Source: a virus (taxonomy: Duplodnaviria > Caudoviricetes). Taken from it: 64,000 bases of DNA. The stretch is from the IMG/VR virus record IMGVR_UViG_3300027374_000001; one strand, 5' to 3'. The notes under the pieces were generated by a model. The model did no database searches, had not been told where the DNA came from, and saw only the letters and a list, made by a program, of their open reading frames with translations. Positions 19,021 to 42,953 of this stretch are shown in pieces; position 1 is the first letter of the stretch; every line of letters starts with the position of its first letter. Both the position numbers and the translations under genes were made by a program.

Positions 19021-19450
19021 CCTCGTTCTCCTCTTCATCCTCATAAGCGTACTCATGGATATCAAAAGAAGTATCGTCTTTTACAGCATCGTTTTCTTTC
19101 ATCGTTACCATAAATTTAAATATAGATATCTTCTTATCTATAGTAACAGTAGAAGAGTTAGAGATAATATACGACTTATGGACGTCTATAAAGACATATT
19201 CATTCTCTATAAAACTCTTAATATAGTCATACACTTCCTGTCTTCCAACTACGAAGTTCCAATCCTTAAATTCCGTAGAACCGTCGTCTCTGTTCTCTCC
19301 TACTAAAAGTACCAAATAAGTTTTCTCATCCTTATTCTCTTCTTCGTACACCATGCCGGGAGTATATAAATCTTTTTCAGAAATATCTTCCCCTTCTGGT
19401 ATATACTCCATCCCCTTTATTAATTTCTTTTCTGTTTCTTGATTACTCAT
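19007..19450 (-). CDS. hypothetical acidic protein
   Basis: 147 aa, AAGGAGG SD, class I promoter; N-terminus carries KGMEY and PGMVYE. Confidence 0.75.
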   Translation of the reverse strand: MSNQETEKKLIKGMEYIPEGEDISEKDLYTPGMVYEEENKDEKTYLVLLVGENRDDGSTEFKDWNFVVGRQEVYDYIKSFIENEYVFIDVHKSYIISNSSTVTIDKKISIFKFMVTMKENDAVKDDTSFDIHEYAYEDEEENEDGKQ

Positions 19451-19535
19451 AAAATAATCCTCCTTAGTAGTTTATCTTTCATTCATATAAATAATATATT
19501 CTTATTATGAAAGTTACGGTATATATAAAAGTATA

Positions 19536-20741
19536 TCAGAAAAAGAAACGATTAACCATATTAGGAATCACATATATGAGAAAATTTTTAAATCTAGAAG
19601 CCCCAACATAATTTAAATTATCTTGAATACTAGGATTTAAATACTCTTGTACATAAATCCCATTATTGTATTGAGCCCCTTGTGATAAATGCGTGGTTAT
19701 AGCATAAGCATATTCCATCTTTTCACCGGTAGAATATTTACTATTTTTTAACCATTGCCTTTCCTCATGATTAGCTATAAAATACTTATAATCGCATACA
19801 ATATTTAGAAATTTTATATCTAACAAATCTGTGGTAAAATCTATAGTAAAGGTTCTCCCATCATATCTGGTTATATCAGTAGGTGTAGATACCCTTCCAA
19901 TAAGTCCATTAGCTAGACTAATACCATTCTTTTCTATAGACCAGTTATTTTTTCGGCATATAAGCTTCTCATTAATCCCAGGAAGTCTAGTTTTAGCATG
20001 TAATATTTCTTCACGTATTTTATTATTATATAAGTCCCTGGTCTTATTTTTTCCACATATTAATATTTGAGAACCTTTAATCATATCCAGAGTAAGATCT
20101 TTTTCTTCAATAACAAGTACGTTTCCATAATATCCTGGGCTCAACGGGATTCCATTTCTAACTAAATAAGACACATAGGCTATTCCTCCATTAGCATCTT
20201 GTCTAACCAATTCATCTAAACAATCTATATTTCTATCGGTTAAATATGCCGGTGTAGATTTTACTGGAGGGAGCTGCCCCCAGTCCCCACATGCTATAAT
20301 AGGCTTTCCCAATCTCTCTATATATTGTTTCATCTCTATAGGAACAGTATATGCTTCATCTATTATGATATAGTCAATATCTCTAAAATACTCTATTGGA
20401 CGAGGTCTAAACACTAATTCTTTTTTAGGTTTATTATATACCTTATCTATAATAGGATTGCCATGCTCATCTACAACTATCTCATCTACCAACTCCATAG
20501 TCCAAGAATGAATAGTTCTAGCATTCCATAATCCATTAACTCTCATAACTATAGCGGCTTGCCCAATATATGCCATAGCAGCTATTCTTGATAATGGAAT
20601 TCCGACACCTTCTATTATTTTATGAAGAACATACGTTTTACCAGTTCCAGCATAACCAGTATATTCATATACTTGAACTTTGTTATGCCTTATATGATCA
20701 ATACCATTCTTTACTACCAATTCTTGTTTTTTGTTAAGCAT
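19536..20741 (-). CDS. SF1 DNA helicase, Dda/RecD-like
   Basis: GYAGTGKT, ARTIHSW, IIIDEAY, CGDWGQLPPV, YAYAITTHLSQGAQY, YVGASR. Confidence 0.9.
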   Translation of the reverse strand: MLNKKQELVVKNGIDHIRHNKVQVYEYTGYAGTGKTYVLHKIIEGVGIPLSRIAAMAYIGQAAIVMRVNGLWNARTIHSWTMELVDEIVVDEHGNPIIDKVYNKPKKELVFRPRPIEYFRDIDYIIIDEAYTVPIEMKQYIERLGKPIIACGDWGQLPPVKSTPAYLTDRNIDCLDELVRQDANGGIAYVSYLVRNGIPLSPGYYGNVLVIEEKDLTLDMIKGSQILICGKNKTRDLYNNKIREEILHAKTRLPGINEKLICRKNNWSIEKNGISLANGLIGRVSTPTDITRYDGRTFTIDFTTDLLDIKFLNIVCDYKYFIANHEERQWLKNSKYSTGEKMEYAYAITTHLSQGAQYNNGIYVQEYLNPSIQDNLNYVGASRFKNFLIYVIPNMVNRFFF

Positions 20742-37378: not shown

Positions 37379-38650
37379 TCAAACGATCCTAGAGTCATTC
37401 ATTTTGTTTATATAAATTAATTGCTCGTTCACATAACTAAGATTTATATAAATTCCTATACTAGACCTCTTTTGCTCTAATTTAGCTTTCACAGACATCA
37501 CGTAATTATCCCAGTCTATATCTATATAAACCTTTTTAAAATTATTATATAAATTAATCTCCATGAATATTTCTGGAGATAGACCACTATCTTTTGTTTT
37601 CTTTAATACTTGCTGTAAATCGTGATTGTTCATGAGTTCACTAAAATCTATAGTATCAAGATAATAATCATCATTATCCCAATCTGTAGTTAAATATATT
37701 GGCCATCCATTACTATTAGTCTTAGGAATATCATATATATTTCTAAGATTATATAATCCAACTGTTTCTCTTTTCTTTTTCTTCTCAAGAAGGAGAGTAT
37801 GATCAGTATAGTATATATAAAATTGTGGAACTGGTATTCTTAATTCTGCATTCATTTCTATATGAAAATTATTATCTAACTGGCCTTGTCTTTCTCCATC
37901 ATCCATAGACAATGAATCTAAACAAGACATGTGTAGATAAATTCCAGATGCTCTTATGAAAAACTCACTATTACCATTTATAGTTCTAAACTTATATAAA
38001 AATGGTAGTCCGGACCTTTCATTAAGATGATTTAAAAATCCATACACATCTTTAACATTCATATTTTCATCAGTTTCAAACCCGGCATCGTTTGCTACAT
38101 GATACATTATATCTTTAGGAACATGAAAATCCATATCAGCATAAGCCGAATCAGTTTGTCCAATTTTAAATGCTAACCTCATGAATTCTGCTATATCTAT
38201 TTGCTGTGCTCTTGTGCTTAATCTAACCCTAAATATAAAGTTAATCTTCATCAATTTCATATGCAAGCCAATAAAACTACAGGCGTCATAATCTCTATAA
38301 AAACTCTTATCATAATTATGAATCCTCATAGCAAATTGTTTTAATCCTCCTGGATGCACATCTACATAATCACGATTATACTCCCAATCCATCATAGATT
38401 GTATACTAAGAGCTGGTTTTTCTACTGTAAGCAACTCTTTTCTGGATAGTTTTCTATAATCGTCAAATACAGATTTTCCATTTATATAAATAGTCTTAAA
38501 AAATCCATCATCAAATTTTTCTAAGAACCATTTTTTCATATATTCTACTCCAAGAGAATATCCATGAATAGTAGACGGAACTGCTATATCACAGTTAAGA
38601 TCAAAAGCTCCAATAGTGTGTTCACTTATCCCATTATACCTTCTAAGCAT
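37379..38650 (-). CDS. hypothetical jumbo-phage protein, probably virion-associated
   Basis: ORF extends to 38665; ATG at 38650 follows GGAGGT; AACA-N6-TA at 38672-38683. Confidence 0.75.
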   Translation of the reverse strand: MLRRYNGISEHTIGAFDLNCDIAVPSTIHGYSLGVEYMKKWFLEKFDDGFFKTIYINGKSVFDDYRKLSRKELLTVEKPALSIQSMMDWEYNRDYVDVHPGGLKQFAMRIHNYDKSFYRDYDACSFIGLHMKLMKINFIFRVRLSTRAQQIDIAEFMRLAFKIGQTDSAYADMDFHVPKDIMYHVANDAGFETDENMNVKDVYGFLNHLNERSGLPFLYKFRTINGNSEFFIRASGIYLHMSCLDSLSMDDGERQGQLDNNFHIEMNAELRIPVPQFYIYYTDHTLLLEKKKKRETVGLYNLRNIYDIPKTNSNGWPIYLTTDWDNDDYYLDTIDFSELMNNHDLQQVLKKTKDSGLSPEIFMEINLYNNFKKVYIDIDWDNYVMSVKAKLEQKRSSIGIYINLSYVNEQLIYINKMNDSRIV

Positions 38651-38708
38651 ATTAAATACCTCCATAATAATTAAGTAGATGTTTCAAGATGACAAAAAAT
38701 AAAAGATT

Positions 38709-38738
38709 ATGACCAGTGGAGAAATCTCCACTGGTCAT
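38709..38738 (-). terminator. intrinsic terminator after array 3
   Basis: ATGACCAGTGGAGA/TCTCCACTGGTCAT 14-bp stem plus TTTTATTTTTT. Confidence 0.78.
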
Positions 38739-38742
38739 TACA

Positions 38743-38922
38743 TTTGCTACTACAGATTGTATTTAGCCATATAGATTCTTATAGAGCATGAGATTAAAAT
38801 TATTTCAATTAGATTCGCATAATAACCTAGATTAAAATATTTATACTTAAGTCGAGATAATATATAAAACTCAAGATTCATTTGAGTATTTAGATTATAA
38901 TCCATTTACTCAGATTAAATAC
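38743..38922 (-). repeat. TIGR-like array 3 (orphan)
   Basis: AGAT(T) at 38754, 38773, 38791, 38811, 38829, 38855, 38874, 38892, 38912; spacings 19,18,20,18,26,19,18,20 with mostly alternating AGATTC/AGATTA. Confidence 0.7.
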
Positions 38923-38927
38923 AATAA

Positions 38928-39626
38928 TTAAACTATCCACTGAATAATTTTCAGCCGCATACTACCAAATCTCAGCTTCTTCCATATACTAAATAGCAAA
39001 ACATTTATGTTATCCATGGGGTTTGGATGATATTTGTCAAAACAATGATCTTCTACTATACGTTGATATGATCCATGCATTTCATAATCATCGTTCATAT
39101 CATTTATTCTACTTTTTAATGTGTTAACAAAATCATTAGCTTCATTTTCTGTTGTGAAAATATATGGTTTAATACTTTCACAATCATGACCTATCAATGG
39201 GCATATTAATCCCTGTCGAGTAATAACACTCCCAAAAAAAGTAGAAGATGGGCTATATATTCTAATAGTATATGCAAACTTAGTATCTGAATATATTCGC
39301 AGTGTCCGTTCTCTAATATAATCTCCAATGTCCCTGTTAATATATCTTATTACCGATACCCCATATGGGAAAGTAACTCCTCTATTGATCTTATCCCCAT
39401 AGCCGTTCCTTATAGTTTCAATTGCATCTTTAACTTTTCCAAGAAATAATCCATATTCATCATGAGGATTGTGTGGGAAATAATAATCTACACCGTCCTG
39501 TGAAGGAATTATCTCTTGGCAATCAACTTGTTTTCCGTTATCGTCATACACTGCTATCTTATTAACAATACGTAAAAACTTTTCTTCAGTGGCATCATTT
39601 AATGCTTTAAATATTCTTGTTTTCAT
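38928..39626 (-). CDS. hypothetical protein
   Basis: 232-aa ORF, GGAGGT SD. Confidence 0.75.
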   Translation of the reverse strand: MKTRIFKALNDATEEKFLRIVNKIAVYDDNGKQVDCQEIIPSQDGVDYYFPHNPHDEYGLFLGKVKDAIETIRNGYGDKINRGVTFPYGVSVIRYINRDIGDYIRERTLRIYSDTKFAYTIRIYSPSSTFFGSVITRQGLICPLIGHDCESIKPYIFTTENEANDFVNTLKSRINDMNDDYEMHGSYQRIVEDHCFDKYHPNPMDNINVLLFSIWKKLRFGSMRLKIIQWIV

Positions 39627-39628
39627 AG

Positions 39629-40513
39629 TTATAGCACCTCCCCTTTCTTCCTCTTACTTAATAAAAATTTCTCACATTTGTTAAAATCACTTTCGCTTAT
39701 ATTTAATTTTTTGCATATGTCCTTTTTTGAAGATGAACCATTTTCATACTTCATGTAATATAAAGTGAACCCCGTAGGAATAGGATGAAAACTATATTCG
39801 CCAGTTTTAATACTTAAATTAACGTGTTTTAGCCCATTCTTATCTTCATAAACTCTTTTATACTGTGAAAATGTACACGGTCTGATACCAATTTCTGCGG
39901 CGGCATCCTTGGCTCTCATGACCCTATCTATGTATACCTTTTGATAGTAATCTCCGAAATTTTTAGGAAAGTATTGCTTAGATCCATTTGAAACATTACT
40001 TTTATTATCAGGAACCAGAGTATCAGATTCTCTAATACTATTGATTGACTCTCTCTCTCTAGAGGGTTTCTCTTTCAACACCAACGGTTTTATTCCATAT
40101 AATAAACACAAACCGTTTTGCAGTTTGTTAAGTAACGCTGGATCCTCAATAGTACCTTGATAATAATTTATATTTTTCATATATACAGGGCATTGTTTAG
40201 TTAAGTCTATCATCCTCCATTCATCGTTTTCATAAAACTTCATAGGAACATAAATATTTCCCTTATTTATTCTAATAAAGTCCACATACTCTTGTACATT
40301 TTGATCTGTAATTGCAACTTTTTCATGCGGGGTGCGTATTGGAGCAACCATAACGCTAACAGCCATATCCAATGGTTGTTGAATTATCACACACGGTCTC
40401 GTTTTAGTCATTCCATCACCCAGACTATCATTATCAAGATCGCATGTGTATACATCGAATTGCCGAAATTTACGCCTCAGATTATAATTCTTTTCTCTAG
40501 TTTTAAATTGCAT
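39629..40513 (-). CDS. PemK/MazF-like domain fused to two HTH-like repeats
   Basis: RQFDVYTCDL...MTKTRPCVIIQ...VMVAPIRT (MazF/PemK signature); two P-x-x-F-x-x-YY...HTH-like units at the C-terminus. Confidence 0.65.
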   Translation of the reverse strand: MQFKTREKNYNLRRKFRQFDVYTCDLDNDSLGDGMTKTRPCVIIQQPLDMAVSVMVAPIRTPHEKVAITDQNVQEYVDFIRINKGNIYVPMKFYENDEWRMIDLTKQCPVYMKNINYYQGTIEDPALLNKLQNGLCLLYGIKPLVLKEKPSRERESINSIRESDTLVPDNKSNVSNGSKQYFPKNFGDYYQKVYIDRVMRAKDAAAEIGIRPCTFSQYKRVYEDKNGLKHVNLSIKTGEYSFHPIPTGFTLYYMKYENGSSSKKDICKKLNISESDFNKCEKFLLSKRKKGEVL

Positions 40514-40621
40514 TTGGAATCCTCCTTGGTAATATTTTTTATTGCTTCATGGATATAATATGCAATTATCAAAAAATAAAATAACAGGACCCGCGTTTAC
40601 GCAGGCCCCGCAAAGTCATGC

Positions 40622-42872: not shown

Positions 42873-42953
42873 CGATTATTGTTTAAGTTGCGATTTTTAT
42901 AAAAATAAAATAAGTGGAGCAGTCACAATCGACCGCTCCACGTTATTTAAGAC

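Follow-up and report, generated by a model that had tools for sequence, protein, structure and literature searches.

The 64,000-nt stretch of virus DNA analysed here (the window; Duplodnaviria, Caudoviricetes, IMG/VR record IMGVR_UViG_3300027374_000001) is AT-rich (~31% GC) and carries its genes mostly on the minus strand. Between the stop codon of one of these genes and an intrinsic terminator, a short motif recurs nine times, far from the sole tas gene that was found. This arrangement raises the question of whether a repeat-spacer series lying in the 3′ region of unrelated genes is a genuine guide array and, if so, which protein would read it.

When the minus strand is read, all nine recurrences of the (GA/TA)ATCT-N9 motif that had been noted between the stop of the ORF 38928..39626 and the terminator are found. 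The cores are located at 38916, 38896, 38878, 38859, 38833, 38815, 38795, 38777 and 38758; eight of the nine read AATCT, and the one at 38859 reads TATCT. Behind each core come 9 variable nucleotides, and the last of these segments leads into AATG and then into the hairpin. The nine segments agree exactly with those listed in the initial annotation, and none of them occurs in the tas-adjacent array, A1. The core-to-core spacings are 20, 18, 19, 26, 18, 20, 18 and 19 nt, with a period of 38 nt (20 + 18) and a single 37-nt unit; the spacing had been described as mostly 18–20 nt, which holds except for the 26-nt gap, the site of a strain-specific 12-nt deletion. The placement between stop codon and terminator was likewise correct, but the stem, given as 14 bp, measures 13 bp, and the distance from the Tas-like gene, remote as stated, is 25.9 kb from edge to edge instead of 27 kb. 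The positions of the features are collected in Table 1.

Table 1. Positions of array A3, its transcription unit, the tas gene, the sister arrays and the related phage genomes
Feature	Position	Strand	Remarks
Array A3, predicted remote dual-repeat TIGR array	38741..38927	minus	nine cores, nine 9-nt spacers
A3 sub-array a	38927-38842	minus	units 1-2
A3 sub-array b	38841-38741	minus	half unit and units 3-4
12-nt deletion junction in A3	38840..38845	minus	edge core and part of spacer lost
A3 terminal truncated edge AATG	38744-38741	minus	
Intrinsic terminator after A3	38695..38738	minus	13-bp stem 38738-38709, 4-nt loop, T-run
232-aa ORF	38928..39626	minus	no family found; stop 11 nt before first A3 repeat
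294-aa ORF	39629..40513	minus	partial PemK-like N-terminus, weak match; first gene of two-gene unit
Terminator of preceding RNAP-subunit operon	40584..40611	minus	
tas gene	11683..12798	minus	371-aa nuclease-less Tas, TasA type; sole tas found
Array A1	11485..11682	minus	immediately behind tas; 5 units, with a 76-nt duplication of two units
Array A2	13609..13706	minus	after topoisomerase II large-subunit gene 13729-16095; 2.5 units and terminator; 0.8 kb upstream of tas
Array before the window	L012:13090-13290		2.2 kb before window; after 287-aa gene that follows tubulin-like gene
Array past the window	L015:16290-16850	minus	5 kb past window end; stand-alone, ~14 units, one damaged; own upstream region
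G005, related phage	IMG/VR 3300045988_134186		247 kb, 99% complete; remote arrays present
G001, related phage	IMG/VR 3300045988_149830		

The periodicity was compared with a shuffled background, as had been proposed for this locus. Chains of AATCT at intervals of 18, 19 or 20 nt were counted in the window and in 200 dinucleotide-preserving shuffles of it. Chains of at least three cores appeared in 4 of the 200 shuffles, the longest having three, while the window contains chains of 10, 5, 5 and 3 cores, all of them on the minus strand and at the array loci; chance is thus excluded. In addition, a unit profile was built from the other four arrays, with A3 left out, and was searched against 83 kb. 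This held-out profile recovered units 1 (E = 1.1e-4) and 3 (E = 5.5e-3) of A3, and no match below E = 0.2 was found in the 83 kb beyond the five array loci. As for public collections, the sole match in Rfam was sub-threshold and at chance level, the exact one-unit pattern gave no match in IMG/VR and four in the JGI metagenome contigs, all within one unrelated coding region, and no match for the DNA or for the Tas protein was found in the GenBank phage collection.

The 30 units parsed from the five arrays all follow one common grammar. An edge repeat of 9 nt (N-ATG-AATCT) and a loop repeat of 11 nt (W-AT-NNT-AATCT) alternate, separated by 9-nt spacers; both start with N-A-T and end with AATCT, so that the box motifs are common to the two. 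The AATCT core is present in 56 of 60 cases, and the A-T following the spacer is nearly invariant (A in 29 and T in 28 of 30 edges; both in 28 of 28 loops). All five arrays close with a truncated edge and a terminator. TIGR-Tas systems, described in 2025 (Faure et al., Science, PMC12045711) with FpTIGR of Flavonifractor plautii as an example, are defined by alternating edge and loop repeats of 8–12 nt, 9-nt spacers A and B and shared box motifs, and their arrays end with a truncated terminal edge and a rho-independent terminator (PMC12045711). A3 resembles the dual-repeat TIGR-TasA systems in its alternating 9- and 11-nt repeats, its pairs of 9-nt spacers and its shared box motifs, and also in having truncated 5′ and 3′ edges followed by a rho-independent terminator. 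It differs from them in the unit length of 38 nt, whereas the published dual-repeat guides are uniformly 36 nt long, a length said to position the cut site (bioRxiv 10.64898/2026.09.09.750476); the longer unit is taken here to reflect a variant length of the loop repeat. The initial annotation had regarded the locus as a guide-like array with the grammar of the array beside tas, and the held-out profile and the 30-unit parse place A3 in the same repeat family as A1. On these comparisons of sequence, A3 is very probably a TIGR array belonging to the repeat family of this phage.

Short repeats at intervals of about two helical turns can, on the other hand, be protein-binding arrays, and the repeats might act as DNA, that is, as iterons or protein-binding sites (for example, in partition or replication), rather than as transcribed guides. 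This is very improbable, given that the five arrays all lie on the coding strand, each preceded by a stop codon or promoter region and closed by an intrinsic terminator positioned right after the truncated repeat, that one of them is located directly behind tas, and that repeats of 9 and 11 nt in strict alternation, with variable segments of 9 nt, conform to the TIGR grammar as published.

If A3 is read as a transcribed guide array, its transcription unit can be delimited by the minus-strand terminators, which are found at 42941, 40611, 38738 and 37396. The second of these closes the RNAP-subunit operon and thereby marks the start of the array-carrying unit; from the terminator positions, A3 closes a two-gene unit composed of the 294-aa and 232-aa ORFs. 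Since the first repeat begins merely 11 nt past the TAA stop codon of the 232-aa ORF, read-through from this unit is the simplest reading of how A3 would be transcribed, and a promoter within the last part of the 232-aa ORF is a conceivable alternative. The two genes had been taken for a PemK-HTH operon. The PemK part stands in the form of a weak, partial match in the 294-aa protein, but no HTH was found in either the 294-aa or the 232-aa protein.

Past the A3 terminator, the minus-strand gene at 37379-38665 is called as 423, 425 or 428 aa depending on the strain, and contigs from ENA and JGI break off within it at ~37,430, a hint that the region varies among strains. Two minus-strand tRNA genes, Met(CAT) and Gln(TTG), are also present in the window, at 1388-1462 and 1836-1907.

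A3 is not the only array of its kind: five arrays with the same repeats were found in the 83 kb read of this ~232-kb jumbo phage genome, and they occupy at least five loci across at least 72 kb. Four of the five begin within ~35 nt of a same-strand stop codon, and the fifth is stand-alone. It had been proposed that the guides are spread around the genome as passengers of other transcripts; the spread is borne out by the five arrays in 83 kb, but the passenger arrangement does not extend to all of them. The stand-alone array (L015) is the largest, and a small opposite-strand ORF with RGMIY is located just upstream of it.

The protein that would serve these loci was sought with a Tas profile (hmmsearch) in all frames of the 83 kb, and nothing besides 11683-12798 was matched; as had been noted from the window, no Tas-like gene adjoins A3. 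The encoded 371-aa protein matches the TasR of 9MTY, a complex reported by Faure et al., at E 1e-8 and TasH at E 1e-5 (phmmer). For an AlphaFold model (pLDDT 75), it was aligned with three relatives. In this model the N-terminus consists of long helices, and the relatives differ only by a central insertion. The best 11 PDB matches of the model in Foldseek are TasH/TasR-tigRNA complexes (probability 1.0), and the IS110-type recombinases IS621 and ISCro4 come next. No RuvC or HNH nuclease domain was found in the 371-aa protein, its sole Pfam match being a weak one to Transposase_20, and it is a TasA-type protein on account of this absence. The PADLOC defence-system models gave no match for Tas or its neighbours. 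Near the C-terminus, H356 and Y359 are invariant in the four-sequence alignment with the relatives and are aligned to the H-x-D-Y of 9MTY. In the published dual-repeat Tas, the precursor is cut by a C-terminal Tyr/His pair, to which H356 and Y359 may correspond. The effector is like that of the dual-repeat TIGR-TasA systems in being a nuclease-less protein of the Nop/IS110-CTD fold, and it possibly shares their conserved C-terminal His/Tyr as well.

Both proteins encoded next to A3 are without assigned function, and it may be supposed that A3 serves a second guide-binding protein next door (the 232-aa or the 294-aa protein) and not the distant Tas. We give this reading very little credence. 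The A3 repeats are identical to the repeats on the tas side, so that the same protein should read both, and neither neighbour is matched by the Tas profile. The other remote arrays are located behind different genes (topoisomerase II and the gene behind tubulin). Furthermore, the 232-aa gene is broken into ORFs of 71 and 89 aa in 16 sister-strain contigs (e.g. in L051–L053; L051:1501-2198), in which A3 is intact; the gene seems dispensable from this split, and its distant homologues in unrelated phages have no array downstream. It is likely that the one nuclease-less Tas found in the 83 kb is supplied with guides from at least five dispersed loci, of which A3, as a genuine TIGR array, would be one.

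The condition of A3 bears on whether it actually contributes to this supply. A3 is more degenerate than any of the other four arrays: its units score 19.1, 13.7, 8.4 and 5.1 bits, the lowest of the five, as compared with 20–36 in the other arrays. Two edges read TGCG and TAAG where the others have NATG, two loops have a length of 5 nt, TATCT stands in place of AATCT in one core, and 12 nt are deleted. Among the internal edges, one is the canonical AATG, one was lost to the deletion, and two are the TGCG and TAAG edges. Processing depends on complete edge repeats (PMC12045711), so that a working guide is to be expected first of all from unit 1, with the other units in doubt; probably only some of the four units would yield good guides.

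These features agree with the view that A3 is a relic, that is, a formerly working array or a duplicated piece without usable guides, kept in a tolerated 3′ region. The low scores of A3 are in line with it, as are the TGCG/TAAG edges and 5-nt loops, which are common to all strains, and the 12-nt deletion, which is fixed in the window strain and in L009–L011. The latter strains have the same A3 array with the same deletion, but they are 99.9–100% identical, and their conservation is uninformative. Nevertheless, unit 1 is fully canonical, as the E value of its recovery by the held-out profile indicates, neither the terminal AATG nor the terminator is damaged, and most strains have five complete units. 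In L023–L027 and L051–L053, 12 extra nucleotides are present at the 26-nt gap, and the sister strains read TATG-AATCT-TTTTGCTTA at the deletion junction, which makes the units five and complete; the window copy of A3 therefore carries a strain-specific deletion. Also against a relic is the array of the less closely related phage L022, which is kept at the same place as A3 despite 15% nucleotide divergence of the flanking gene (the upstream gene is 77% identical in amino acids and 85% in nucleotides). The spacers of its unit 1 match those of A3 at 18 of 18 positions, and its cores and edges are mostly canonical; in the counterpart of A3's unit 2, both loop and edge are canonical. We accordingly consider the relic unlikely, and it is fairly likely that A3 works as an in-trans guide supply to the single Tas.

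The L022 array also gives information on turnover, for which a comparison of orthologous UTRs had been suggested. The occurrence of the array at the same site indicates that the position predates the divergence of L022. Its order is unit 1, three in-phase units that are absent from A3, A3's unit 2, and further units. Whole units are thus gained or lost in phase at A3 while the position stays.

Differences between spacers and repeats were seen elsewhere as well. In L021 (Tas 98% identical), the changes in the topoisomerase array between the first and last core are in spacers, with none in cores. When strain differences in three arrays were pooled, 10 of 178 spacer positions and 4 of 205 repeat positions differed (p = 0.10), which is a trend only. 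In A1, a tandem duplication of 76 nt comprising two units is present at 11489-11640, where several assemblies break. The duplicate copies differ at 7 of 36 spacer positions and at 0 of 40 repeat positions (p = 0.004); the repeats having remained unchanged while the duplicated spacers diverged, this suggests that new spacer pairs may arise by duplication of units and subsequent point change.

For the targets, 30 spacer pairs were searched against the 83 kb in both geometries with gaps of 0–2. No self-target was found there at one mismatch or fewer, and matches with 2–3 mismatches were about as frequent as with shuffled spacers. In the related phage G005, 68 units searched against the whole 247-kb genome gave matches at the control level only, and no cross-targets were found between the present phage and G005 or in the other loci compared. 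From the lack of self- and cross-targets, the guides most likely address DNA outside the phage, belonging to the host or to rival elements. It should be added that 18-mer matches in large collections would be dominated by chance (bioRxiv 10.64898/2026.09.09.750476). Self-complementarity between spacers A and B was also considered: a 5-nt run exists in unit 1, but no enrichment over cross-pairs was seen when all units were taken.

These results suggest the following course of events. A3 would be transcribed as the 3′ tail of the unit encoding the 294-aa and 232-aa proteins, with the transcript ending at the terminator 38738-38709. Tas dimers would bind to the box motifs that flank each spacer (AAUCU on its 5′ side, N-A-U on its 3′ side), and the precursor would be cut within the edge repeats, probably by the C-terminal His/Tyr of Tas. 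The presumed products are tigRNAs of ~38 nt, each with two 9-nt spacers, which would guide the nuclease-less Tas to DNA sites of 9 + 9 bp for binding without cutting. The most likely outcome would be repression of host or rival-element DNA; nuclease-less TasA proteins have been proposed as RNA-guided repressors (bioRxiv 10.64898/2026.09.09.750476).

Remote arrays were also found among related phages that use other repeats. In IMG/VR, jumbo phages with syntenic replication genes encode a nuclease-less Tas of 38–42% identity and have arrays with a period of 35–36. Their repeats are GATTCA / AATCA, in contrast to AATCT with a period of 38 here, but like those of the present phage their arrays occur right after same-strand ORFs. 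G005 has one tas, at 201171-202556, and arrays of its own repeat at 158.4-158.8, 174.0-175.4, 186.3-186.4 and 204.0-205.9 kb. Three of them are remote, 15, 27 and 43 kb from tas, each located just past a same-strand ORF. In G001–G004, the arrays that match the pattern are all within ~3 kb of tas. Remote arrays thus appear to be a clade feature of these jumbo phages. A closer relative of 225 kb, L049, encodes a Tas that is 48% identical and likewise 371 aa long. No array was found there within 10 kb after tas, which is directly followed by a terminator (L049:11116-11207). Its sole array, of 2.5 units with the core AATCA, occurs after topoisomerase II, in the same place as A2. L049 is thus a natural case of a tas that looks array-less at close range. 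L049 also has, at 19446-20300, a match to Anti-Pycsar Apyc1 / metallo-beta-lactamase, which may be a counter-defence gene.

The layout can be compared with those of other guide systems. Orphan (cas-less) CRISPR arrays are located far from effector genes, have an effector-linked repeat and are presumably loaded in trans; whole units are gained or lost in them via recombination between repeats. A3 is similar to them in its remoteness, in a repeat that is the same as that of the effector-linked array and in whole-unit gain and loss, and in-trans loading is presumed here too. It differs in that TIGR belongs to another RNA and protein family, with dual 9-nt spacers reading both DNA strands, and is without known adaptation machinery, the spacers here seeming to come from duplication and point change. 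Box C/D sno/sRNA genes are hosted in the transcripts of other genes. The present arrays share with them C/D-like anchors, a Nop-domain protein and scattered genes that would ride on host transcripts. In contrast to box C/D snoRNAs, however, the guides here are in short tandem arrays without K-turns, they are located in 3′ tails rather than introns, and the target action would be DNA binding instead of RNA methylation. Faure et al. contrasted the clustered tigRNAs with the sparsely distributed snoRNAs (PMC12045711).

In the published systems, the arrays are found upstream of, downstream of or inside tas (Faure 2025, PMC12045711; Xu et al. 2026 preprint), and the largest published survey extracted at most 10 kb of flank around tas. 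In contrast to the published dual-repeat TIGR-TasA systems, A3 lies 26 kb from tas behind unrelated genes, and five or more loci share the guides between them. The literature search revealed no publication that deals with orphan or dispersed TIGR arrays. Relative to published TIGR-Tas, three features are new here, namely the remote location, the attachment to 3′ tails of other genes and the 38-nt unit.

A3, its four sister arrays and G005 provide cases of phage guides located tens of kb from the sole detected effector gene and attached to other genes. Because such a remote layout would escape the published surveys, whole genomes should be scanned with the locus-specific repeat; the number of guides per system has been put too low, and for some 'arrayless' Tas the arrays may just lie far away. 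The locus is also a natural system for the study of in-trans loading and of the 38-nt guide. A wider picture can be offered as a tentative possibility: in this clade of jumbo phages, the guide store of a single Tas might be split, in a snoRNA-like manner, among the 3′ tails of replication, cytoskeleton and accessory operons and one stand-alone array, with each set of guides released at the time of the transcript that carries it, and might serve a phage repressor acting against host or rival DNA. Such a split, if true, would account for tas genes of dense viral genomes that look 'arrayless'.

Finally, a sequence element was noticed at the ends of the arrays. CATCT-N1-2-GAAACAT occurs just past two array terminators, at 38679-38691 (minus strand) of the window and at L012:13311-13325; the window contains no further copy. 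The element could belong to a promoter of the gene that follows, or the two array ends could have a common origin of which it is a remnant.
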